Source of the DNA: Nitrosophilus alvini
GTDB taxonomy: Bacteria > Campylobacterota > Campylobacteria > Campylobacterales > Nitratiruptoraceae
NCBI RefSeq assembly: GCF_015100395.1
Contig: NZ_AP022847.1
Location: 1,750,003 to 1,774,002, forward strand
Length of the DNA stretch: 24,000 nt
Reading direction: 5' to 3'
Position numbers and translations under genes: made by a program. Shown here piece by piece: positions 6,298 through 21,474 of this stretch. The notes under the pieces are model-generated. The model was not told the DNA's origin. It did no database searches and saw only the letters and a program-made list of their open reading frames with translations. Position 1 is the first letter of the stretch. Each line of letters begins with the position of its first letter.

Positions 6298-7056
6298 ATG
6301 GAAAAAGAAAAATACAAAAAAGAACTGTACCATCTGCAGGTGGAGCTTGTTAAATTTCAGCGCCACGTTATCAATAACGACATAAAAGTATGTGTGCTTA
6401 TCGAAGGCAGAGACGCGGCAGGAAAAGACGGAACGATAAAAAGGTTTACCGAACATATGAGTCCGAGAGATACAAGAATAGTCGCACTGGGAAAACCGAC
6501 GGAAATCGATAAAAAATACTGGTATTTTCAAAGATATATTCATTATCTGCCAAGAGGCGGGGAGATAGTCTTTTTCAACCGCAGCTGGTACAACAGAGCG
6601 GGTGTGGAAAAAGTGATGGGTTTTTGCACAAAAAAGCAGTATGAAAAATTTATGGAGCAGGTTCCCAATTTCGAACATCTCCTTGTTCACGACGGAATGC
6701 TGTTTTTCAAATACTATCTTGATATAAGCAAAGAAGAGCAGAAAAGAAGACTCGAAGAGAGGAAAAAAAATCCCTTGAAGCAGTGGAAATTGAGTCCCAT
6801 AGATGATATGGCACAAAAACTGTGGAAAGAGTATTCTCTGGCACGAGATGAGATGTTTTCAATGACACATTTTGCATATGCTCCCTGGACGATAGTGAGA
6901 GCCGATGACAAAAAAAATGCGAGACTCAATATCATAAAAAATTTTCTAAGCAGAGTAGACTACCCCGAAAAAGATGAAAAAATCTGCATTTTTGACCCAA
7001 ATACGGTTTTTGACTTTGATATAAGCTGTTATGAGAAAGGAATGATTGCTCCTTAA
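6298..7056 (+). CDS. ppk2: Polyphosphate kinase 2 (single-domain PPK2), copy 1
   Basis: PPK2 P-loop GRDAAGKDGTIKRFTEHMSPR (from nt 6406) plus conserved blocks FFNRSWYNRAGVE and NPLKQWKLSPID. GAGGTG SD upstream of the ATG. About half the residues are identical to the second PPK2 at 15344..16255, by eye. Confidence 0.9.
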   Translation: MEKEKYKKELYHLQVELVKFQRHVINNDIKVCVLIEGRDAAGKDGTIKRFTEHMSPRDTRIVALGKPTEIDKKYWYFQRYIHYLPRGGEIVFFNRSWYNRAGVEKVMGFCTKKQYEKFMEQVPNFEHLLVHDGMLFFKYYLDISKEEQKRRLEERKKNPLKQWKLSPIDDMAQKLWKEYSLARDEMFSMTHFAYAPWTIVRADDKKNARLNIIKNFLSRVDYPEKDEKICIFDPNTVFDFDISCYEKGMIAP

Positions 7057-7136: not shown

Positions 7137-10100
7137 GTGCATATTAAAAACAGGATACTTGTAGCCGTAGCTATTTTGATAGCCACAGCGACAGTAGCCA
7201 ATCTCTTTTTTGAAGCTCTTAAAGAGAAAGAAAATCTCAAAAGAAAAATTGCAGTATACGAAACTCTTTTACACTCTTTTTTTGAAAAGAGACAAAAAGA
7301 GTATACAACTTTTTTTTCACAAAGAGCTGCATTTTTTGAAAAAATTCCCGAAATAGTCCTCTCGATTGAAAACAAAGAGAGAGAAAAACTTATCGACACA
7401 ATGCAGGAAATTTACAAAAAATCCTCTTTTAAAAGCAGCAATGCAACAGATATTTTTTACTCTTCCGACCTTATGTTTTCAGTCAATACAAAAGAACCGG
7501 ACAAATATGTGGATCTACAAAAACATCTGCTTGTTAAAAAATCCTTAAAAGAGAAAAAAATATATAGCGGTTTTGAAAAAAGTGAAAAAGGTATCTTTTT
7601 TGAAACAGTTTCCCCGATTATATTTGAAAACAGATTTATAGGTGTTGTAGAAACAACTATACCTGCCTCTTCTTTTGCAAAAGATTTTGAAAGTATCTTC
7701 AAATCCAACAAATTGGCGGTAGTATCTCCAAACGGAAGCAGTAGAGAAAACAATAAGCAAGAGATACCCAATTTTACCTCTTTCATGCTAAAACTTTTTG
7801 GACTAGATTTTATCGAGTTTAATAATGAGAGATATTTTTACAGGCACTATATCCCGCTCACAGACATTTCAGGCAATACTCTCGCTTATGTAAAAGTGTA
7901 TCAGGATGTCTCTACAGGCGTGAAAGACTTTTACAGTGCGATTGTAAGAACTTTTGCAATAAGTATCAGTGTAATATTTTTGATAATTCTTTTTCTTAAA
8001 TTTTATTTGGAAAAGATTTTTGAAAAACTGAACAAATATCACGAAAGACTTGAAAAAGCACAAAAAATTGCCCACCTTGCAAGCTGGGAGTACGATCTGG
8101 AAACAAAAGAGTTTACAGTATCAAGCTCTCTGTTCGAAATTTTAGAGATAGAAAAGAGAAGAATGCTCAGCATAAAAGAGTGCAACCGTTTTATAGTCCC
8201 AGATAACAGAGAGTATGTAAAAAAGAGTATCATAAAAGCTTTCAGAGAAAAAAGCGAATGGGATATAGAGTATAAAATAACAACCGAAAAAGGAAATTTA
8301 AAATTCATTCACTCTAAAGGTTTCATAAAAACCGATAAAAACGGTAAACCTTTAAAACTCTTTGCAACGATACAGGATGTCACAGAGATAAGAGAGAAAG
8401 AGAGGGAACTTAAACTTTACAAAAAAGTTATAGACAACAGCATCGAAGGTGTTATCATAACTGACAGCCATAATAACATCATCTACGTAAACAGTGTATT
8501 TACTGAGCTTACAGGATATACTGAAGAAGAAGTTATCGGGAAAAAACCGAATATACTTAGTTCCGGCAGACACGGAAAAGATTTTTATAAAAAGATGTGG
8601 AAATCCCTTTATGAAAAAGGGTTTTGGCAAGGCGAAATATGGAATAGACGAAAAAACGGGGAAGTATATCCCGAATGGCTCAACATCTCCACAGTAAAAG
8701 ACGAAAACGGAAAAATACTCTATTTTGCTGCAACTTTTGCCGATATCACACACCATAAACTTTCAAAAGAGAGATATCTTCAGTTAGCACACTACGATAT
8801 TTTGACTGGCCTTCCCAATAGACTGCTTCTTTTGGACAGACTTCAGGCCAGCATTTCACATGCAAAAAGAAACAGTAAACCTTTTGCAGTTATGTTTATA
8901 GATATGGACAGATTCAAACATATAAACGATACATTAGGACACTCCGTTGGAGATATTCTTATAAAACAGATGGGAGAAAGACTGAAATCATGTTTTAGAG
9001 AAACTGATACCGTTTCAAGAGTCGGTGGAGACGAATTTATAGTTCTTATAGAAAATCTCAATAATAAAAACAACGTTCTAAATCTGGCAAAAAAAGTGAT
9101 AAAAGCCGTTAATAAACCTTTCCGAATAAAAGGGTATGAACTGTTTGTAACCGTAAGTATAGGTATAGCCATATATCCCAAAGACGGCACTACAACAGAT
9201 GAGCTTCTAAATCATGCCGATATGGCTATGTACAAAGCAAAAGAGCTGGGTAAAAACAGATTTATGTTTTTCGAAAGAGAGATGAACAGGTTTGCCGCTC
9301 AAAGACTTTCAATTGAGCATGATTTAAGACGTGCTGTATTAAATGGCGACCTTTTTTTGGAGTATCAACCAAAAATCGAACTTGAAACAGGTAAAATAGT
9401 CGGCGCAGAAGCGCTTGTAAGATGGGAACATCCCACTAAAGGACTTATACCCCCTTCAGATTTTATTCCTATAGCCGAAGAAAGCGGAATGATAGCAGAT
9501 ATAGGCAGCCTTGTTCTACAGCATGGAATCGAGCAGATGAACCGATGGAAAAGCGAGTGTAAACAGGATATGATTCTGGCTATCAATGTCTCAGGAGTCC
9601 AGCTTTTAAACCCAAAAGAGTTTATAGAATCCCTCGGTTTTTATATAGAAAAATATCCTTCACTCAAGAACAAAATAGAGTTGGAACTGACAGAGAGTAT
9701 TTTGATGAAAAATATAGATGAAATGATAGAGATGATGTATAGATGTAAAAATCTCGGCTATCACCTTGCGATAGATGATTTTGGGACCGGATACTCTTCA
9801 CTTAACTATCTTAAACGCTTCCCAATAGATACTTTAAAAATCGACCAGTCATTCATAAAAACACTTGAAATTGATGAAAAGAACAGAGCCATAGTAAAAA
9901 CTGTCATTTCCATAGCCAAAACCCTCGGTTTCAAAGTTATTGCAGAGGGAGTTGAAAAAAAAGATCATGCACAGTTTCTAAAAAAAGAAAAATGTGATAT
10001 AGCCCAGGGATACTTTTTTTCAAGACCTCTTTCACCAGAAAAATTTATAGAGCTTTTAAAAGCGCAGCCTTTTGTGAAAAAATTTTCCAAAGTTTTATGA
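7137..10100 (+). CDS. Membrane sensor protein: periplasmic domain - TM - PAS - PAS - GGDEF - EAL (c-di-GMP synthase/phosphodiesterase)
   Basis: N-terminal TM (ILVAVAILIATATVANLFF), a roughly 240-aa extracytoplasmic region and a second TM (FAISISVIFLIILFLKFYL). Two PAS-like blocks follow (..ASWEYDL.. and ..IEGVIITDSHNNIIYVNSVFTELTGYTEEEVIGK..). GGDEF motif at nt 9024-9038 with RETD (an RxxD I-site) 5 residues upstream. EAL motif at nt 9408-9416 plus ELTES, DDFGTGYSSLNYL, AEGVE and QGYFFSRP. Confidence 0.92.
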   Translation: MHIKNRILVAVAILIATATVANLFFEALKEKENLKRKIAVYETLLHSFFEKRQKEYTTFFSQRAAFFEKIPEIVLSIENKEREKLIDTMQEIYKKSSFKSSNATDIFYSSDLMFSVNTKEPDKYVDLQKHLLVKKSLKEKKIYSGFEKSEKGIFFETVSPIIFENRFIGVVETTIPASSFAKDFESIFKSNKLAVVSPNGSSRENNKQEIPNFTSFMLKLFGLDFIEFNNERYFYRHYIPLTDISGNTLAYVKVYQDVSTGVKDFYSAIVRTFAISISVIFLIILFLKFYLEKIFEKLNKYHERLEKAQKIAHLASWEYDLETKEFTVSSSLFEILEIEKRRMLSIKECNRFIVPDNREYVKKSIIKAFREKSEWDIEYKITTEKGNLKFIHSKGFIKTDKNGKPLKLFATIQDVTEIREKERELKLYKKVIDNSIEGVIITDSHNNIIYVNSVFTELTGYTEEEVIGKKPNILSSGRHGKDFYKKMWKSLYEKGFWQGEIWNRRKNGEVYPEWLNISTVKDENGKILYFAATFADITHHKLSKERYLQLAHYDILTGLPNRLLLLDRLQASISHAKRNSKPFAVMFIDMDRFKHINDTLGHSVGDILIKQMGERLKSCFRETDTVSRVGGDEFIVLIENLNNKNNVLNLAKKVIKAVNKPFRIKGYELFVTVSIGIAIYPKDGTTTDELLNHADMAMYKAKELGKNRFMFFEREMNRFAAQRLSIEHDLRRAVLNGDLFLEYQPKIELETGKIVGAEALVRWEHPTKGLIPPSDFIPIAEESGMIADIGSLVLQHGIEQMNRWKSECKQDMILAINVSGVQLLNPKEFIESLGFYIEKYPSLKNKIELELTESILMKNIDEMIEMMYRCKNLGYHLAIDDFGTGYSSLNYLKRFPIDTLKIDQSFIKTLEIDEKNRAIVKTVISIAKTLGFKVIAEGVEKKDHAQFLKKEKCDIAQGYFFSRPLSPEKFIELLKAQPFVKKFSKVL

Positions 10101-11661: not shown

Positions 11662-11670
11662 TGATATAAT
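11662..11670 (+). promoter_or_regulatory. Extended -10 promoter TGATATAAT upstream of the radical SAM gene
   Basis: TGnTATAAT lies 33 nt upstream of ATG 11703, with a strong SD AAGGAGGGG at 11691-11699. The box sits in the loop of an 8-bp inverted repeat (TGGTTTCT 11655-11662 / AGAAACCA 11677-11684). The same 9-mer recurs at 13836-13844. Confidence 0.55.
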
Positions 11671-13835: not shown

Positions 13836-13844
13836 TGATATAAT
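13836..13844 (+). promoter_or_regulatory. Extended -10 promoter TGATATAAT for the tandem secreted-protein genes
   Basis: TGnTATAAT preceded by an A/T tract, 37 nt upstream of ATG 13881 (SD AAGGA at 13870-13874). It lies in the divergent spacer shared with the haem-binding-domain gene. Confidence 0.55.
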
Positions 13845-13880: not shown

Positions 13881-14261
13881 ATGAAAAAATTTGCTCTTCT
13901 CATGATAGCTTTTTCAACTTTTCTCCTGGCTGAGAAAGCCGATGTAATAGACGCAAAAATCAAAAAAAGCTACGGCGGAAGCTACATTGCATATGTAAAA
14001 ATAAAACATAATGATGTAGACGCAAGCCATTTCGCCGACGAGTGGGAAATTCTTGATGAGAACAGAAAACGTATAACAGTTAGGCTGATTTTCGGCCCCC
14101 AGCCTGGAAAAGAGATAATAGAATCGGAGCTTTACGGCTTCAAAATACCTGACGGAACAAAAAAAATTATAATTAGAGCCCACTGTTCAAAAGAGGGCTT
14201 CGGAGGAAAAGAGTTTGAGATAGAACTTCCTGAAAGGAATGACCAAAATGAAACTAAATAG
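13881..14261 (+). CDS. Small secreted protein, paralogue A (uncharacterised family; motif-degenerate copy)
   Basis: Signal peptide MKKFALLMIAFSTFLLA. Aligns without gaps to the next ORF (shared KH.D....H.AD.WEILDEN......R.......P...S..Y....P...K...IRAH....G.GG.E..I.LP). It has FGPQPGKEIIESE where paralogue B has HHPHIDEQPFTRS. Confidence 0.7.
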   Translation: MKKFALLMIAFSTFLLAEKADVIDAKIKKSYGGSYIAYVKIKHNDVDASHFADEWEILDENRKRITVRLIFGPQPGKEIIESELYGFKIPDGTKKIIIRAHCSKEGFGGKEFEIELPERNDQNETK

Positions 14262-14604
14262 AATTTTCATGCTTTTAATATTCGCTGTCTCCATATTCGC
14301 CGGTGAAGCGGACGTAAAAAATGTAAATGTAGAAAAAATTTCCAAAAACACCTATAATTTTCACGTTACCGTAAAACACAGTGATGAAGGGCAAAAACAT
14401 TATGCAGACAGATGGGAAATACTTGACGAAAATGGAGAAGTCCTTGCTATAAGAATACTACACCATCCGCATATAGATGAACAACCTTTTACTCGCTCTA
14501 TGTATGATGTAGAACTACCCAAAGATGTTAAAGAAGTAAAAATCAGAGCACATGATCTTATTCACGGATACGGGGGTGAGGAGAAGAGTATAAAACTCCC
14601 CTAA
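14248..14604 (+). CDS. Small secreted protein, paralogue B (His-rich HHPHxDEQPFTRS motif)
   Basis: Signal peptide MKLNRIFMLLIFAVSIFA. Conserved KHSDEGQKHYADRWEILDENG, HHPHIDEQPFTRS (nt 14461-14499) and RAHDLIHGYGG. ATG 14248 is better spaced from AGGA than ATG 14239 of the ORF track; either start overlaps the end of paralogue A. Confidence 0.7.
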   Translation: MKLNRIFMLLIFAVSIFAGEADVKNVNVEKISKNTYNFHVTVKHSDEGQKHYADRWEILDENGEVLAIRILHHPHIDEQPFTRSMYDVELPKDVKEVKIRAHDLIHGYGGEEKSIKLP

Positions 14605-15287
14605 TCCATCCTTCTTACATCATGAAACTCTCCGCTTTCATATTTTAACAGTTTCACAAAAGTCTCTATCAACATCTTTGCGCTCTCCTCGGGCGAAAGC
14701 TTTGGACTCTCTTTGAGTCTTTTGACAGAAGGATACTTCTCTTCATCTATATTTTCAAGTATGTGACCAAGCATAGGTGTGGCAACTAGCCCCGGGGCAA
14801 GCGCACTTAAATGTGTATTTGACATTTCACGGGCATAAAGTTTTATCAGCATATTTAGTGCAGCTTTGCTGATACTATATCCACTCCAGCCTCTGCTGCC
14901 GTTTACCGCAGCTCCACTGGATATCGCGACTACCTGCTTTATATTTATATTTTTAAAAAAATCAAGAATAACTTTATTTGACCATACATTCAAATCCATA
15001 ACGGTTTTCAGCTCATACAGACTCGTTTCGCTCATATCTTTTATGTCACCAAGCATCCCCGCATTAAGTATGGCTATATCAATACACTCAGGCAGTAGTT
15101 CCAAAAGTTCTTTTTCTATTTTTTCGTGAGCGAAAAGATCCAATCTTCTAAAATACAGGTTATCTTCATTTTCCAAAGTCTTTGGTTTGTAACGGCCAAG
15201 AGCGTATACCTCATCTCCGCGCTTGAGATACTCTTTTGCCAAAGCTTCCCCAATACCGGAACCTATCCCTGTTATAAAAACTCTCAT
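14601..15287 (-). CDS. Short-chain dehydrogenase/reductase (SDR) family oxidoreductase
   Basis: Rossmann motif ITGIGSGIGEALA, NAG motif (LNAGML), catalytic Ser (ISSGAA) and YSISK (YxxxK). Start set to ATG 15287 (MRVFITG..., with AAGGAAAG upstream) rather than 15308. Confidence 0.85.
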   Translation of the reverse strand: MRVFITGIGSGIGEALAKEYLKRGDEVYALGRYKPKTLENEDNLYFRRLDLFAHEKIEKELLELLPECIDIAILNAGMLGDIKDMSETSLYELKTVMDLNVWSNKVILDFFKNINIKQVVAISSGAAVNGSRGWSGYSISKAALNMLIKLYAREMSNTHLSALAPGLVATPMLGHILENIDEEKYPSVKRLKESPKLSPEESAKMLIETFVKLLKYESGEFHDVRRMD

Positions 15288-15343
15288 TCTTCTTTCCTTT
15301 AATATCATAGTTTGTTATTGATTAAACGATATCTTTCCCAAAC

Positions 15344-16255
15344 TCAGGCATCTATCTGAATGCTTCTTCTATGATATCTCTGAACTATATCAGGGTCAGG
15401 ATGCAAAGAAGTCCTTGATTTCTCTTTTCCATCATACGGAATCTGCGACAAGACATATCTTATGGATTCAAGTCTTGCCAGTTTTTTGTTATTGGAATTC
15501 ACTATAATCCAAGGACTATAGGTTGTATGTGTTTTTGAAAACATCTCTTCTTTGTAAAAAGTGATTTTATCCCATAGTTTCTGTGCCTTAATATCAACGG
15601 AACTCAATTTCCATTGCTTCAAAGGATTTTTCATCCTCTCTTCAAATCTTCTTTTCTGGGTCTCTTTTGAAATACTGAACCAGAACTTTATCATAATTAT
15701 TCCGTCATCAATGAGTGCATGCTCAATTTCTGGCACCTCTTTGATAAACTTTTCATACTGTTCTTGGGTGCAAAAGCCAAACGCAGGTTCAACTATAGCT
15801 CGGTTGTACCAGCTTCTGTCGAAAAAAACAATTTCACCCGGATTTGGGAGATGTTTAAAATATCTTTGAAAATAGAACTGGCCCGCTTCCACTTCAGAAG
15901 GTTTAGGAAGGGCTACGACTCTGTATTTTCTGGGATTCAAATGTTCGGTAAATCTTTTTATAGCTCCACCTTTTCCTGCGGCATCTCTTCCCTCAAAAAT
16001 AATCATAAGTCTTTTTTTATTTTCATATATCCAGTTTTGCATCTTTATAAGCTCAATCTGCAGCCTTTTTAACTCCTCTTCGTATTCAACTTCTCTTAAC
16101 GCTTTTGAAATCTTTTTCTTTTTAACTAAAAGCTTCAGACCCGTTTTTGTTCTAAGCTTATGAATCTTATCTTCCAAAGATTCAAGTTTTGCTTTGAGCT
16201 CTGGCTCACTGATTCTCTCTTTTAAAAAATATAAATCCTCATACAAAGTTTCCAT
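15344..16255 (-). CDS. ppk2: Polyphosphate kinase 2, copy 2, with a roughly 60-aa N-terminal coiled-coil-like extension
   Basis: P-loop GRDAAGKGGAIKRFTEHLNPR plus FFDRSWYNRAIVE and NPLKQWKLSSVD. ATG 16255 is preceded by AAGGAG inside the end of rgy, and the CDS overlaps the rgy stop by 17 nt. Confidence 0.9.
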   Translation of the reverse strand: METLYEDLYFLKERISEPELKAKLESLEDKIHKLRTKTGLKLLVKKKKISKALREVEYEEELKRLQIELIKMQNWIYENKKRLMIIFEGRDAAGKGGAIKRFTEHLNPRKYRVVALPKPSEVEAGQFYFQRYFKHLPNPGEIVFFDRSWYNRAIVEPAFGFCTQEQYEKFIKEVPEIEHALIDDGIIMIKFWFSISKETQKRRFEERMKNPLKQWKLSSVDIKAQKLWDKITFYKEEMFSKTHTTYSPWIIVNSNNKKLARLESIRYVLSQIPYDGKEKSRTSLHPDPDIVQRYHRRSIQIDA

Positions 16256-19200
16256 GTATCTCCTTCTTTATCTTTTCATATAGGTCTTTTAATATCTGTT
16301 GATAATCTGCCTCTTTATTTTCAATTTTATCCATTAATTCTTCTAACTCTTTTGTATATCTCTCATTCACAAACTCATAAATTTGAGGGACGCTTTTTAA
16401 AGTTCCATAAACTTTTTTACCCAAATTTGTGGCAAATATAAAACCGTTTTTTTGATAGACGTATCTTCTTTCAAAGAGTCTTTGAATGATTATGGCATAA
16501 GTTGAAGGCCTTCCTATACCTTTTTCTTTCATCTGCTGAATTAGCGTAGCAAAACTGAATCTAGGAGTTTTTGGTTTTGTAAATTTCTCTTTTTCTGCTA
16601 TTTTCATACACCCTATATCAATTTTATATGTCTCGATAGGCAAAATTTTGTTAAAACCATCTTTGACGATCTTTTTTATAAATGAAAAGTCCGTTCTTTT
16701 ATCTTCAAAAATAGCCTCAGCTTCAACTTTTTCTACTTCACACTCTCTCATTTGTGAAGCTATAAATTCTTTAAAAATAAGATCGTAAAGTTTTAAATGA
16801 TTTTGAGTTATAGTTTTTTGTCCATTTATTTGCAGATACTCTTTCAAATCATCAACATCCATAGGCTTTGTAGGTCTTATACACTCATGTGCGCCCTCTT
16901 TGGTTTTAAAACTTCTTGGAGAAAAAAACTCCTTTCCAAAATTTTGTTCAATGTACTCTTTTGCAACATTTATCCCCGCACTTGAAACTCTGATAGAGTC
17001 CGTTCTATGATATGTTATAAATCCTGCTTCAAAAAGGTCTTGTGCGAGCTGCATTGTAAATTTTGGAGAAAATTTCAGTTCATTTGAAGCATTAAAAAGC
17101 ATAGTATCTGTTGAAAAAGGTTTTTTAAAAAGTTTGGATTTTTCTATTTTTTTATATTTTATCTCTATCTCATCTATTTTTTCAAAAAACTCATTTTGCT
17201 TATGAAGATCTTCAAAAACAAAATCTATATCAAAACCTTCAACTTTAACTCTTACAATATAATCTTTTTCCTTTACCTCATCCTCTCTTTTTACTATCCA
17301 TTCTAATACCGCACTTTGGACTCTTCCGGCACTTAAAGTCTTTCTGTTAAACTTTTTTTGTAAAAATTGCGATATCTCAAACCCTATCCATCTATCTGCA
17401 ATTCTCCTTACTAGCTGAGCTTTTACTAGATCTTCATCTATCTGCCTTGGTCTCTCTTGAGCCTCTTCTATCGCTCTTTTAGTAATTTCATGAAACTCTG
17501 CTCTTTTAATATTTGAGTTGAAAATTTTTGAGTTTAGATATATATCAAACCCTATCTTTTCTCCTTCAATATCAGGATCAGTCGCTATTAAAATCTCTTT
17601 TACCTCTAAATCCAACTCCCTTAAAGCTTTGATTATATCCATCCTGCTCTCATCAATCACTTCATATTCGGCAACAAATACACTATTTTTTAAAACACCG
17701 TGGAATCCATCTTCTTTATTTAGATCAAAAACATGCCCCTTTGATGCAGCAATATTTAAAATTCTGTTTTTTGTGACAATCTCAAAAACTTCCATATTTT
17801 TAATTTTTCTTTTTATAGGTTTCCCATAAAAAGATGCAATAGTCCTTGCTTTATTTGGAGATTCGACTATCATAAAAGTTGTTTTAAAAAGATCTTTTTC
17901 CCCTTCCAACTCCCCTTTTAAAGCTTTTTTTACAAGCTCTCTGTCTTTATCAACCTTTTCAATGATTTTTTCTAAATCAACCTCTTTAATATCTTTAAAC
18001 TCTATCTCTTCGCTAAACCATCTTACTTTCTTTTTAAGGGAGTTAAATGCCTTTTCCTCATCTACCAGTATAAGAGACAAACCTTTTGTAAGTCCTCCCA
18101 CATAAAGCCTGCTAGTTCTTCCGCTGGCTTGAATATATCCAGTAACATCGGCAGTGACAACACTAAAACCGTTTTTGTTTCTCTTTAAAAAGATATCCGG
18201 TGAACTATCGATTTTTTTTATCAGATCTTCATTTAACAGGGAATTTACAAAATTTAAAATCTTTTCTATTCTCTTTTTTGCATTTTCGTTTAGTTTTTCA
18301 CTTTTTATATAAAAAACTTTTTTTAGATAGTTAATATACGAAGAGATTTTAATAACTTTTTCTTCATCAAGATATTTTTTAAAAAAAGGAAACAGCAGAA
18401 GAAAAAAATAGTATAAATTTGTATGTTTTGTTATATCAAGATTAAATTCCAACTTTGGAACGCCGGCAAATATAGCATATCTAATAGTATCGGGCAGATC
18501 AAAACCTCTTGCCAACGGGTTTTTATAACTTGCAATTCCAACAACTACTAAAATTTCACCTTTTTTAAATTTTTCTATATTTTCTTCATCCAACTCTTCA
18601 TAACCAATTGCCGTTATGGAGTTACTATTTAAAAAAGAGAGGGTCTCCTTTAATCTATCTTTTGTTTCATTTGAAGGAAGAAAAACAAGTCCTCCCTTTC
18701 CAAATTTTTTTATATACTCAATTAAATCCTTTAAAACATTGTCACTTTTTTTATAAACATCTTCAACATTTCTAATTGCAATACTAGGCTTACTTACCTC
18801 AAACCCCAATAGCTCTCTAAAGAGTAAAACTCTTCTGGATTTTGGGTTTGCAGTTGCACTTGATACTATTAAATTCGCTGCTTTTTTTGATGCAATTTTT
18901 TTGATTTCTTCATCTTTTTTATAAAACTCTTCCAACTCTTTTTGTGAAACTTTTCCTTTGGAAAAAAGAGCCCTTTTGTAAACTATAAAATCTAAAGTTT
19001 TTTGGATATCCTCCTCGGAAAATCCTAAAAGCATCAGAATTTTATCTATATTTTTCGCACTTTTTAAAATACTATCCACATCATCAACAAAAACAAAATC
19101 AAACTCTTTGGGCAAAAGCTCAAAATTTTTATACAAAAACATTGTTGTAGTGATAAGTATCTTAAAATCACTGTTTTTAATTTTCTCTTTTAAAAGCTCT

Positions 19201-19676
19201 CTCTCTTTTTGGGAAAGCTTTGAATCATAAAATAAAACATCATCTTTTTTAGTACCAAAAGTTAAAAGCTTTTCATATGCTTGATTCGCCAAAAGATGTG
19301 TTGGAAAGATAATATAGCTCTTTTTATCTTTATTCGCCAAATATGAAGAGAGAATTAAACCAAATGTTGTTTTTCCGACTCCAGTGGGGGCCAAAAGGGC
19401 ATAAGAGATATTTAAAAAAAACCTTTTGATCCAGCTCTCTTGGATCTCTCGTAAATCATAACCTAAAATTTTTTTAAAATACTCTTTGAAATTTTCAACC
19501 TCCTTTTTAAGAGAGCAAACTTTTAAAAATTCGCCCTCTTTTAAAACTGAACACAGCTGATCCTGCGGAACCTCTATTTCTAGACAATTTTTACAGGAAA
19601 GCCCTTTATACAACCTGTCACTATCTATATCTTTACCACAATTTGGACACATTCCTTTATAGATCAAAGGTATCAA
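16239..19676 (-). CDS. rgy: Reverse gyrase (SF2 helicase-like domain fused to type IA topoisomerase)
   Basis: N-terminal Zn finger CPNCG-x14-CKNC. Helicase motifs: APTGVGKTT (nt 19365-19391), VDDVD, SSAT, QASGRTSR. TOPRIM: IVESPNKA (Glu codon 17862-17864) and DPDIEGE. Topoisomerase IA active site ITYHRTDS (Tyr889 codon 17010-17012). 1145 aa. The TTG start at 19676 gives MIPLIYKGMCPNCG, an N-terminus like those I recall from archaeal reverse gyrases. Confidence 0.97.
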   Translation of the reverse strand: MIPLIYKGMCPNCGKDIDSDRLYKGLSCKNCLEIEVPQDQLCSVLKEGEFLKVCSLKKEVENFKEYFKKILGYDLREIQESWIKRFFLNISYALLAPTGVGKTTFGLILSSYLANKDKKSYIIFPTHLLANQAYEKLLTFGTKKDDVLFYDSKLSQKERELLKEKIKNSDFKILITTTMFLYKNFELLPKEFDFVFVDDVDSILKSAKNIDKILMLLGFSEEDIQKTLDFIVYKRALFSKGKVSQKELEEFYKKDEEIKKIASKKAANLIVSSATANPKSRRVLLFRELLGFEVSKPSIAIRNVEDVYKKSDNVLKDLIEYIKKFGKGGLVFLPSNETKDRLKETLSFLNSNSITAIGYEELDEENIEKFKKGEILVVVGIASYKNPLARGFDLPDTIRYAIFAGVPKLEFNLDITKHTNLYYFFLLLFPFFKKYLDEEKVIKISSYINYLKKVFYIKSEKLNENAKKRIEKILNFVNSLLNEDLIKKIDSSPDIFLKRNKNGFSVVTADVTGYIQASGRTSRLYVGGLTKGLSLILVDEEKAFNSLKKKVRWFSEEIEFKDIKEVDLEKIIEKVDKDRELVKKALKGELEGEKDLFKTTFMIVESPNKARTIASFYGKPIKRKIKNMEVFEIVTKNRILNIAASKGHVFDLNKEDGFHGVLKNSVFVAEYEVIDESRMDIIKALRELDLEVKEILIATDPDIEGEKIGFDIYLNSKIFNSNIKRAEFHEITKRAIEEAQERPRQIDEDLVKAQLVRRIADRWIGFEISQFLQKKFNRKTLSAGRVQSAVLEWIVKREDEVKEKDYIVRVKVEGFDIDFVFEDLHKQNEFFEKIDEIEIKYKKIEKSKLFKKPFSTDTMLFNASNELKFSPKFTMQLAQDLFEAGFITYHRTDSIRVSSAGINVAKEYIEQNFGKEFFSPRSFKTKEGAHECIRPTKPMDVDDLKEYLQINGQKTITQNHLKLYDLIFKEFIASQMRECEVEKVEAEAIFEDKRTDFSFIKKIVKDGFNKILPIETYKIDIGCMKIAEKEKFTKPKTPRFSFATLIQQMKEKGIGRPSTYAIIIQRLFERRYVYQKNGFIFATNLGKKVYGTLKSVPQIYEFVNERYTKELEELMDKIENKEADYQQILKDLYEKIKKEIHGNFV

Positions 19677-20342
19677 CTATACCCCTTTCATTTGCAGATA
19701 CTCTTTAATCTCATGCAAAAGAATCGCCGGATTTTTTATAGGATATGTTAATCCTTTTGCAACTTCACTTCCGTTTATTCCCTTAATATCCACCTCTTTT
19801 AACATCCTCTCAAGTTCACTTGAATCTACAATCGGATAAGAGATACCTTTGGTATTTTTAAGCACTATATATGCCCATGGGGCTTCACATTTTGCAGCTT
19901 TTATCGCTTCACCGGCAATCTCATGGCAAAAATCGAGCATCGTTTGAGAGTCTTGCCCCTCTTTTACAAGCTTATATGCAAGTTTTGCAACTCCACCTGC
20001 AGTATGAACTTTCATCTCTTTTTTCTCTTCTTCAGTCAGTTCATCAAAATGCTCTATCTTATATATTGCTGCATCAGGATCTGCTCTTAGGATATTTCTA
20101 ACCGTATTTCTGGTAAGTCCCACATAATCGGCTATATCATCCTCCGTTTTTAGATACTCCTCTCTTAAAACTATTGCAAAAGCAGCCCTGGCAAGAGATG
20201 GAAGCCAAGTAAGAGTTCTAAACTCTGTAAGTTTTTTTAACCCACCAAGAAGATCTATAGATTTGTAAAAAACTCTCTCTACCAATCTCTCTAATCCTTT
20301 TTCATCTATATCAAGCCCCGTTCCGGTCAGTATAATCGCCAT
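19677..20342 (-). CDS. Uncharacterised helix-turn-helix protein, translationally abutted to rgy
   Basis: Clear HTH at aa 66-86 (TEDDIADYVGLTRNTVRNILR, nt 20085-20147). Strong SD AAGGAGG 6 nt before the ATG. The stop TAG (19677-19679) is followed immediately by the rgy TTG start. I recognise no other motif; it is possibly the thermophile-associated HTH family (COG1318-like), from recollection only. Confidence 0.75.
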   Translation of the reverse strand: MAIILTGTGLDIDEKGLERLVERVFYKSIDLLGGLKKLTEFRTLTWLPSLARAAFAIVLREEYLKTEDDIADYVGLTRNTVRNILRADPDAAIYKIEHFDELTEEEKKEMKVHTAGGVAKLAYKLVKEGQDSQTMLDFCHEIAGEAIKAAKCEAPWAYIVLKNTKGISYPIVDSSELERMLKEVDIKGINGSEVAKGLTYPIKNPAILLHEIKEYLQMKGV

Positions 20343-20360
20343 CTTTTCCTCCTTTTTTAT

Positions 20361-20417
20361 TTAGTGTTGGTGCTGGTGTTAGTGTTGGTATAGCACCTAT
20401 TTTTAACACTAACACTA
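20361..20417. repeat. Interleaved direct/inverted repeat element in the kaiC-like/HTH spacer
   Basis: Direct repeat TTAGTGTTGGT at 20361-20371 and 20379-20389. Perfect 11-bp inverted repeat GTGTTAGTGTT (20376-20386) / AACACTAACAC (20405-20415). Second complementary pair GGTGCT (20369-20374) / AGCACC (20392-20397), interleaved with the first. The heptamer TAGTGTT occurs 4 times (two on the plus strand, two on the minus strand). Confidence 0.85.
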
Positions 20418-20433
20418 TCACTCTTCCAACTAA

Positions 20434-21309
20434 CTACTTCCCAATTGATTCCAAAATCTTAACAATTCCGGTTTCGCTTATCTCCATAAAATGTGTTCTT
20501 GTATCATGTCCGCTCATCCTACATCCATCTATCCTAAAAAGTCTTACCAAATCACCAATATTTGCATTATAAATCCTAGCGGCGTATGCACTTGTTATCA
20601 TCTCCTTCGCCAAAACCATTGTTCCATCAACAATATGGCCCACTGCATACCCCCCGGCAGCTTCTGCACTCAGTTCCTCGTGACCACTTCTTTTTTGAGA
20701 TACAAAAAGTGCCGTTTGATACCATTTTTTCATAAAATTAAAGACTCTTCTAACAATTGCTCTTGCCATCATCTCTCTGTTTTCAAAAAGCCCGGTAACA
20801 GAATCTATAACTGTGTAATTTATTTTATATGTTTTTATTGCATAAGCTAAAGTTGCTAAGAGATCCGGGACATTTTCTCTCAGAGGTGTGTGTGAGGCTG
20901 CATCTATCATAATAATATTATCTTCAAATTTACTAAAATCGTAGCCCATTGCCAATGCTCTATATTTAATTGATGCTATAACAAAATTTGCAGGAGTCTC
21001 AACTGTAATAAAAGCTACTTTTTGACCCTTCCTTGCCTGCTCTACTGCAAACTGTTCAACCATTAATGACTTTCCGGTATCATTAACCCCGGTTAAGTTA
21101 AAAACACTATATTTTGGTATCCCTCCAAGAGGCATCTGCTTTAATTTGCCATTTACCTCTTTTACTGTAAAAAAAAGTTCATCAAGTCCTTCAATTCCAG
21201 TTGGAACCCCTTCTAACTCCGGAGCCTTTTCTAAAGCTTTACTTCCAACCAAAACCCCTTCTTTAATAACTTCTGGCTCTTTATAACGAATTTCATCTTC
21301 TTGTGCCAT
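20434..21309 (-). CDS. Single-domain KaiC/RadA-like RecA-superfamily ATPase
   Basis: VPTGIEGLDELF...GGIPKYSVFNLTGVNDTGKS (Walker A at nt 21067-21090). Catalytic-type Glu after beta-2 (AFITVETP). Walker B INYTVIDSVTG. C-terminal KaiC-like block FRIDGCRMSGHDTRTHFMEISETGIVKI. ATG preceded by AAAGGA. Confidence 0.85.
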   Translation of the reverse strand: MAQEDEIRYKEPEVIKEGVLVGSKALEKAPELEGVPTGIEGLDELFFTVKEVNGKLKQMPLGGIPKYSVFNLTGVNDTGKSLMVEQFAVEQARKGQKVAFITVETPANFVIASIKYRALAMGYDFSKFEDNIIMIDAASHTPLRENVPDLLATLAYAIKTYKINYTVIDSVTGLFENREMMARAIVRRVFNFMKKWYQTALFVSQKRSGHEELSAEAAGGYAVGHIVDGTMVLAKEMITSAYAARIYNANIGDLVRLFRIDGCRMSGHDTRTHFMEISETGIVKILESIGK

Positions 21310-21335
21310 TTTGATTCCTTTTGTCCTTTTTAAAG

Positions 21336-21344
21336 ATTATAACA
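21336..21344 (-). promoter_or_regulatory. Extended -10 promoter (TGTTATAAT on minus strand) for the kaiC-like/HTH/rgy/ppk2 operon
   Basis: The minus strand reads TTTTTTTTTTGTTATAATCTTTAAAAAGGACAAAAGGAATCAAAATG. This is a TGnTATAAT box behind a T-tract, about 27 nt upstream of ATG 21309. It is the only good promoter-like box I see upstream of the four coupled genes. Confidence 0.5.
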
Positions 21345-21474
21345 AAAAAAAATATTTAAAATATGCCACTTTAGTCACATTTTGGAGAAAATAGATAAAA
21401 GACTAAATAGCTAAGTTGCTAAAGAGTGAGATGGGGGATTTAGGGAGATAAAATTATTATAAGAGTTTAAAGAT

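Follow-up and report, generated by a model that had tools for sequence, protein, structure and literature searches.

What are the genes for a KaiC-like ATPase and a helix-turn-helix (HTH) protein doing directly upstream of a gene for reverse gyrase (rgy)? The question is raised by a 24,000-nucleotide stretch of DNA from the vent bacterium Nitrosophilus alvini (Campylobacterota, Nitratiruptoraceae; assembly GCF_015100395.1, contig NZ_AP022847.1, positions 1,750,003 to 1,774,002 of the forward strand), which we analyzed as a whole and refer to below as the window. On its minus strand lie, in this order, the genes for the KaiC-like ATPase, the HTH protein, reverse gyrase, a polyphosphate kinase of the PPK2 family (ppk2), and an oxidoreductase of the short-chain dehydrogenase/reductase (SDR) family. 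Life at high temperature has reverse gyrase as its signature enzyme. The KaiC-like/HTH, rgy, and PPK2 families are all known, and what we found described in no paper is the recurrent coupling of the KaiC/HTH module, and of the HTH gene above all, to rgy. We propose, with a probability of roughly 45%, that the window encodes an autoregulated thermoadaptation operon in which the first two genes would serve as the control module.

The identity of the three central proteins is clear from profile searches. A first-pass annotation, made from the sequence alone, had called the 291-aa protein KaiC-like and the 221-aa protein an HTH protein, and both assignments are borne out. The 221-aa protein shows 100% identity to a protein recorded for N. 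alvini. The former matches TIGR03878 (thermo_KaiC_2) at 447.7 bits (cutoff 232.2) over profile positions 1-258 of 259, as well as PF06745 at 188 bits, and the latter matches TIGR03879 (near_KaiC_dom) at 127.6 bits over residues 30-129 (cutoff 65.1). Across 63 orthologs of the KaiC-like protein, little or no variation is seen in the Walker A motif G..DTGKS (GVNDTGKS), the catalytic Glu of TVETP, the Walker B motif VIDS, and the motifs SQKRSGH and AAGGYAVGHIVDG. A GG....H motif (AAGGYAVGH), which we take to resemble that of RadA/Rad51, is invariant in all 63 sequences. The best sequence relatives of the KaiC-like protein in the PDB are KaiC chains (E = 2e-14), and its PDB relatives include the RadA paralog SSO2452 (2w0m) and RecA. 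A Pfam scan of the HTH protein returned no family above cutoff, with weak matches to HTH_23 and Crp, and PDB sequence and fold searches returned no relative other than weak HTH-domain matches (ParB, sigma-4). The AlphaFold model is all-alpha with two domains (pLDDT 90). The N-terminal one is a sigma-70-region-4-like HTH domain that resembles the HTH domains of sigma-70 region 4, ParB, and IS21, and the C-terminal one is a helical domain that is DUF2795/MTH865-like in relatives; Sigma70_r4_2 scores above cutoff in one relative, and DUF2795 matches also occur in relatives. The 221-aa protein may bind DNA through its HTH. The first-pass annotation had also brought up COG1318, an HTH family that comparative work on hyperthermophile-specific genes (Makarova, Wolf, and Koonin) reportedly flagged besides reverse gyrase; the one paper found to mention COG1318 applies the label to something else. 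Reverse gyrase matches TIGR01054 at 1235.9 bits over residues 1-1137 (cutoff 471.7), and all four domains (zf_Rg, DEAD, Toprim, and Topoisom_bac) were recovered. The motifs APTGVGKT, DDVD, and ITYHRTDS occur in its translation and are invariant in our alignment (A4), and its TTG start coincides with the first position of both the zf_Rg and the TIGR01054 profile, with orthologs starting at GTG or TTG. By domain content the product is a full-length reverse gyrase, and it is predicted to carry out ATP-dependent positive supercoiling.

The first-pass annotation had proposed that a lack of enrichment of KaiC-like or HTH genes next to rgy in other genomes would count against it. We surveyed the surroundings of the pair in one genome per GTDB species using an 11-sequence alignment, keeping the 80 closest loci of 385 relatives, and also examined 80 metagenomic rgy loci, of which about 67 were assessable. 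The annotation is not refuted by this test: rgy directly adjoins the module in 16 of the 80 closest species-level loci and in further lineages, an archaeal one included, with several junction architectures. The 16 linked loci fall at three separate places on the HTH tree, and because this tree follows taxonomy, we regard them as separate juxtapositions in which the pair was resident. The first is in the Nitratiruptoraceae, where 11 loci have an rgy start and an HTH stop that share 4 nt (as GTGA in 10 and as TTGA in L037). The second is a Persephonella subclade nested among unlinked sisters (L018, L019, L021, and L024, with a terminator); here a canonical terminator (GCGGGC...GCCCGC plus a T-run) stands behind the HTH gene, with just about 25 nt between it and the rgy ATG. 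As this leaves no room for a separate sigma-70 promoter, rgy in Persephonella may need read-through of the terminator or a promoter within the HTH gene. The third comprises two Hydrogenothermaceae loci (L070 and L083) whose rgy belongs to a different lineage (40% identity) and is oriented divergently to KaiC, with 76-80 nt of intergenic sequence between the two genes. Among the metagenomic rgy loci, the HTH gene lies upstream of rgy in three, two of which represent new lineages. One of the two (L102/L172) has the order KaiC-HTH-rgy, in which HTH and rgy overlap as ATGA, and its HTH protein is closest to archaeal-type members. A relative of this HTH protein, encoded outside the metagenomic rgy set in a clearly archaeal context (L176; SecY, Cbf5, Kae1), comes with the same gene order and a gap of 1 nt between HTH and rgy. 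The other new lineage (L097/L174) has HTH-rgy without an adjacent KaiC gene. On this contig (L174/L175, 9001-15292), rgy is followed by co-directional genes for an LPG-synthase-type membrane protein, endonuclease V, and a THEP1-type NTPase (PF03266), in appearance a compact thermophily-linked gene set. When all neighboring open reading frames were clustered, no gene other than rgy directly adjoined the module in three or more distinct clades. Finding at least five lineages with differing junctions is far beyond chance, given that two neighbor slots among ~1800 genes amount to about 1e-3 per independent lineage by a rough estimate. The HTH-rgy junction is the constant part of the unit, and the KaiC-HTH spacer is hypervariable.

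Could the pair and rgy instead be mobile thermophily genes that gather in the same islands, with no direct functional meaning in their adjacency? The neighbors of the pair do change from clade to clade, and L174 has the look of a thermophily island (rgy, EndoV, THEP1). In a rough neighbor-joining tree, the linked Persephonella rgy falls within the identity range of the Nitratiruptoraceae, which suggests transfer of rgy between phyla. GC content at third codon positions (GC3) is also low in KaiC (0.27), HTH (0.28), and rgy (0.24), compared with 0.35-0.42 in most other genes of the window. We nevertheless consider this explanation unlikely, as the HTH tree tracks taxonomy and so marks the pair as resident rather than co-transferred, the number of lineages with differing junctions is far above chance, and the precise 4-nt overlaps together with the 76-80 nt shared divergent region imply selection on co-expression. 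We also considered xenologous replacement of the window rgy in particular, which its GC content of 30% and its low GC3 would favor; however, KaiC and HTH have low GC3 too, and the divergence of this rgy from its relatives is just slightly above usual.

The organization of the window genes also points to co-expression (Table 1). The first-pass annotation had placed four co-directional minus-strand genes behind a single TGnTATAAT box, and all of the coordinates were reproduced, including the TAG of the HTH gene (19679-19677) that directly abuts the TTG of rgy (19676) and the 17-nt overlap between the rgy stop and the ppk2 ATG, with AAGGAG 4 nt upstream of the latter. The distance of 56 nt given for the following SDR gene stands if its start is the ATG at 15287, which is preceded by a Shine-Dalgarno (SD) sequence, and becomes 35 nt if counted from the first in-frame ATG; we favor the start at 15287 because orthologs begin with MKIFITG. 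The SDR gene is probably the last of the unit. Upstream of the cluster lies an unrelated polyferredoxin/TorD-like pair, and downstream of SDR lies a convergent gene. On the minus strand between 21336 and 14601, a box scan found no perfect extended -10 box beyond that of the KaiC promoter, and a scan for consensus terminators found no convincing intrinsic terminator. Together with the coupling at the HTH-rgy and rgy-ppk2 junctions, the single extended -10 box and the lack of internal promoters or terminators of the scanned types indicate that KaiC-HTH-rgy-ppk2-SDR would be transcribed as a single message.

Table 1. Features of the KaiC-HTH-rgy cluster, in window coordinates.
Feature	Position	Strand	Basis
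KaiC-like ATPase, single domain (thermo_KaiC_2), 291 aa	20434-21309	-	TIGR03878, PF06745
HTH protein (near_KaiC_dom family), 221 aa	19677-20342	-	TIGR03879
Reverse gyrase (rgy), 1145 aa, TTG start	16239-19676	-	TIGR01054
ppk2, class I PPK2, 303 aa	15344-16255	-	TIGR03707
SDR-family oxidoreductase	14601-15287 (14601-15308 from first in-frame ATG)	-	adh_short, 80 bits
Extended -10 promoter box TGtTATAAT	21336-21344	-	Box scan and conservation in relatives
Conserved imperfect dyad ATGTGACTAAAGTGGCATAT, candidate operator/activator site	21361-21380	-	Conserved spacing in relatives
KaiC-HTH spacer, 91 nt, lineage-specific, hairpin arms 20405-20415 and 20376-20386, AAGGAGG SD for HTH	20343-20433	-	

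The KaiC-HTH spacer is where a break in this unit might be sought. The repeat-rich 91-nt sequence singled out by the first-pass annotation is present and contains a perfect 11-bp inverted repeat (GTGTTAGTGTT / AACACTAACAC). It folds at -21.2 kcal/mol (z = -2.0), and still at -12 kcal/mol at 55 C; in the minimum-energy fold, the SD stays outside the hairpin and is not base-paired. As a meaningful feature it did not hold up, since its sequence is not conserved among orthologs, in which the two genes are separated by -4, 1, 13, 63, or ~200 nt of unrelated sequence. The hairpin is not a canonical terminator, because no T-run follows it, and an Rfam search of the spacer gave no match; a conserved regulatory RNA or terminator is therefore ruled out. 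Three orthologous loci (L008, L009, and L011) have a ~200-nt spacer with long inverted repeats and a GC-rich stem plus T-run, unlike that of the window. The junction is thus hypervariable, with unrelated palindromic inserts of which some are terminator-like, and different palindromic elements seem to have entered it on several occasions.

These observations bear on the possibility that the cluster is transcribed as more than one unit and that the spacer hairpin or internal promoters split KaiC from HTH-rgy, which would not exclude the other explanations. The spacer is indeed the variable point of the cluster, the stem of the three loci above is terminator-like, the window hairpin is stable at 55 C, and the HTH gene occurs without an adjacent KaiC in L174 and in Thermovibrio. 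We judge such a split to be quite improbable, as the hairpin in the window lacks a T-run and was not called as a terminator, no extended -10 box lies between KaiC and HTH, and the two genes overlap or are 1 nt apart in many relatives.

The KaiC promoter offers a candidate target site for a regulatory module. The TGtTATAAT box lies 27 nt upstream of the KaiC ATG. There are three perfect TGnTATAAT boxes in the window, but at least three were also found in 18 of 100 shuffled sequences, so that the count alone is not above chance; support for the box comes instead from its position and its conservation in relatives. Each of the three boxes (the other two at 11662-11670 and 13836-13844) has a start codon ~26-32 nt downstream, which fits the kind of promoter built on an extended -10 element that is usual in Campylobacterota. 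Upstream of KaiC, TGnTATAAT followed by a AAAGGAGG-type SD is conserved in all Nitratiruptoraceae-type loci. Further upstream lies an imperfect dyad with the family consensus TGCnA-N6-TnGCA, which ends 22 nt upstream of the -10 hexamer and is centered near -42. It recurs at equal spacing in nine relatives (L006, L008, L009, L011-L014, L016, and L017) despite differing upstream genes, and is a perfect palindrome in Nitratiruptor SB155-2. A position weight matrix scan of the window returned one dyad site. A dyad centered near -42 would suit a dimeric activator at a promoter without a -35 element.

In the operon that we propose, the HTH protein would be a dimeric transcription factor that binds this dyad at its own promoter, and it may bind equivalent sites where rgy is divergent or unlinked. 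A hexameric KaiC-like ATPase would alter HTH activity through its ATPase or autophosphorylation state, with temperature or energy/DNA status as the possible cue, and reverse gyrase would rise with the module on thermal stress. Here rgy would be co-expressed cargo, and ppk2 and SDR would be passengers outside the conserved mechanism. We favor a regulatory role because of the shared control region of 76-80 nt where rgy is divergent, the arrangement in which a terminator separates HTH from rgy, and the varied but mostly heat- or DNA-related neighbors of the pair. By analogy, heat induction in other organisms would agree with this: rgy is induced by heat more than 100-fold in Nautilia profundicola (PMC2628731), and PF1931 (KaiC domain) and PF1932 (predicted regulator) of Pyrococcus furiosus are heat-shock-induced targets of Phr (PMC10746257).

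Alternatively, the module may be a physical partner of reverse gyrase on DNA that loads, targets, or modulates the enzyme at damaged or melted regions, rather than a transcriptional regulator. The start-stop overlap of HTH and rgy in separate lineages, with the genes 1-6 nt apart in two more, is the kind of coupling typical of subunits made in a fixed ratio. The extreme sequence conservation of the pair, the GG....H motif, and the PDB relatives SSO2452 and RecA would also fit, as would neighboring genes for SMC, Hjc, RecO/PolA, a DnaQ-like exonuclease (judged by eye), and RecG some 3 kb away. We find a physical partnership improbable, as RadA/RadB models score far below their cutoffs and KaiC models score best, the Persephonella terminator and the divergence in the two Hydrogenothermaceae loci fit regulation better than stoichiometric co-synthesis, the genes are apart in most genomes, and no fusion of HTH to KaiC or Rgy was found among multi-domain relatives. 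As for KaiC-HTH fusions as a sign of interaction, none was found; the long relatives either repeat near_KaiC_dom in tandem or join it to a radical-SAM or nitroreductase domain.

The wider distribution of the pair helps to place these alternatives. The HTH family is small, as a full HMMER pass over 1.84 billion representatives (E < 0.001) gave 104 clusters at 50% identity. Members were found in Campylobacterota (Nitratiruptor, Nautilia, Caminibacter, Lebetimonas), Aquificota (Persephonella, Hydrogenothermaceae, Aquifex, Hydrogenobaculum, Desulfurobacterium, Thermovibrio), other Bacteria (Thermodesulfobacteria, Dictyoglomaceae, Thermogemmatispora, Ardenticatena), and, among Archaea, Korarchaeota. 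All named relatives of the pair, and the sources of metagenome-assembled genomes that encode it, are thermophilic or from hot environments, as judged by organism names rather than by a formal profile. KaiC and HTH genes are adjacent in about 60 of 80 genome loci (L008-L087). The full-length HTH gene can also stand apart from its usual partner, given the Aquificaceae loci (L073-L086), where it is followed by a gene for a large TamB-like protein (judged by eye), and a Thermovibrio locus (L179), where a T2SSE-type ATPase gene follows.

Elsewhere the pair keeps other company. In Nautiliaceae, the HTH gene overlaps that of pyruvate kinase by 1-4 nt (eight loci: L034, L038, L043-L045, L050, L055, and L059), and pyruvate kinase also lies less than 5 kb from the pair in Thermodesulfobacteria. 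In seven species of the latter (L057, L058, L060, L063, L066, L069, and L071), SMC is encoded co-directionally 30-150 nt downstream of KaiC-HTH. PAS-GGDEF-EAL genes flank the module in Nitratiruptor SB155-2, Hydrogenobaculum, and Thermodesulfobacteria. On archaeal contigs, the gene directly after HTH encodes Hjc (L090, 8001-8994), a spermidine-synthase-family protein (L177, 5497-7264), or a DJ-1/PfpI protein (L181, 5001-6227); in L177, HTH and the KaiC-like gene have divergent orientations. These other neighbors are mostly heat- or DNA-related (EndoV with THEP1, Hjc, spermidine synthase, PfpI, SMC).

Several points weigh against the regulatory operon. Most pair loci (64 of 80, or ~80%) and about 64 of the 67 assessable rgy loci (~95%) are unlinked, and the 20% adjacency is biased upward because the 80 loci are those closest to the query. 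With other neighbors elsewhere, the accessory system dedicated to reverse gyrase that the first-pass annotation envisaged finds no support. Nor is tight coupling specific to rgy, since the overlap of HTH with pyruvate kinase in Nautiliaceae is equally tight. The dyad is confined to Nitratiruptoraceae-type loci, and no operator motif shared across phyla was evident by eye upstream of KaiC. Identity between Campylobacterota and Aquificota is 70-83% for KaiC and 57-81% for HTH, compared with 40-57% for rgy, so that the pair is far more conserved than typical transcription factors, which fits a structural or enzymatic partner at least equally well. The Pyrococcus genes are heat-induced and their annotations match those of the window pair, a likeness drawn from annotation alone; a profile search gave no Pyrococcus among the best 120 matches, and the paper on PF1931/PF1932 (PMC10746257) draws no link between that pair and rgy. 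All support for the operon is comparative and in silico.

The remaining genes of the unit appear to have been joined to it at different times. PPK2 matches TIGR03707 at 350.4 bits (cutoff 301.8) and has a single domain, the two-domain PAP models scoring below their cutoffs, and it carries a 54-aa N-terminal extension. Its gene was found in the window and in L009, L012, L014, and L037 alone, always with the 17-nt overlap, and is absent from L006, L011, and L020. As it is limited to a Nitrosophilus-like subclade, and neither PPK2 nor SDR genes were found near the 80 metagenomic rgy genes, the first-pass view of ppk2 as part of the system has to be given up; presence in just five loci rules it out as a conserved component. 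Where ppk2 is absent, SDR adjoins rgy, with its start overlapping the rgy stop (L011 and L020), and where ppk2 is present SDR follows it (L012 and L037), which indicates that KaiC-HTH-rgy-SDR is the older arrangement and that ppk2 is a later, lineage-specific insertion. The GC3 values of ppk2 (0.345) and SDR (0.367) stand beside the lower values of the first three genes, which fits a compositionally coherent block of KaiC-HTH-rgy to which ppk2 was added later. The best NCBIfam matches of SDR are PRK07023 and PRK06924, which we take to be sepiapterin-reductase-like. In Persephonella (L018-L024), a gene for 6-pyruvoyl-tetrahydropterin synthase (PTPS/QueD) lies just upstream of KaiC; SDR and PTPS could belong to one pterin pathway, or their occurrence could be a coincidence.

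Other genes in the window include a second PPK2 gene (252 aa, 6298-7056, plus strand), whose product is 53% identical to that of the operon and lacks the 54-aa extension. It adjoins a gene for a dCache-PAS-GGDEF-EAL protein (7137-10100, plus strand). Two tandem overlapping plus-strand genes (13881-14261 and 14239-14604) encode small paralogs with hydrophobic, signal-peptide-like N-termini and a common ...KH.D....H.AD.WEILDEN... motif, and the second of them ends convergently 4 nt into the SDR gene.

What, then, does the locus tell us about reverse gyrase? A literature search found no paper on a regulator or protein partner of the enzyme, and none on a KaiC/HTH module coupled to it. The pair is a first concrete candidate for such a regulator or partner, as far as gene arrangement can suggest one. 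Its link to rgy also suggests a function for an orphan KaiC-like/HTH family, and the independent juxtapositions in both domains of life provide a testable hypothesis, namely that HTH acts at the 20-bp dyad and that the pair affects the expression or activity of Rgy. Its confirmation would raise the question of how temperature is sensed in thermophiles and DNA topology adjusted to it. In a wider version, reverse gyrase would have found its long-missing dedicated regulator or loading partner in the HTH protein, driven by the KaiC-like ATPase, and this protein would be a master switch of thermoadaptation in thermophilic Bacteria and Archaea. It would sense temperature or DNA state by way of the ATPase cycle and set how much positive supercoiling there is or how active it is, together with polyamine synthesis, EndoV repair, and functions of that kind. 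This strikes us as doubtful.

Comparison with known systems helps to define what is distinct about the module. An arrangement that possibly works alike is that of autoregulated bacterial heat-shock operons of the hrcA-grpE-dnaK type, in which control genes stand first, a conserved operator lies at the promoter, and stress effectors follow; those operons have unrelated proteins and another operator, and for the window regulation is a proposal. The KaiC of the cyanobacterial circadian KaiABC clock shares the RecA-like KaiC ATPase domain (PF06745) with the window protein, but it is a double-domain protein of ~519 aa compared with the single domain of 291 aa here, and the window protein scores 33-53 bits against the circadian models TIGR02655 and NF006799, whose cutoffs are 408-546. 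KaiA and KaiB are absent among the annotated window genes, and the partner here is the HTH protein. RadA and RadB share the superfamily, the Walker A and B motifs, and the GG....H motif, although with 17-26 bits against cutoffs of 172-278 the window protein is not a member of these families; likewise, with 40-44 bits against cutoffs of 194-215, it is not ArlH/FlaH. Makarova et al. are said to have proposed in 2017 that archaeal KaiC-like ATPases (e.g., ArlH/FlaH and CirA) are signal-transduction hubs. These hubs likewise place the gene for a single-domain KaiC-like ATPase beside that of an HTH-type output protein, while thermo_KaiC_2 is limited to thermophiles, bacterial as well as archaeal. 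The closest known counterpart is the TIGR03878/TIGR03879 pair itself, whose two members are in the window encoded by adjacent genes and score above both cutoffs, as the family names imply. The pair is a catalogued module without assigned function, among few other gene sets known from thermophiles alone; it has been catalogued just as hypothetical or probably regulatory, whereas in the window it is translationally coupled to reverse gyrase.

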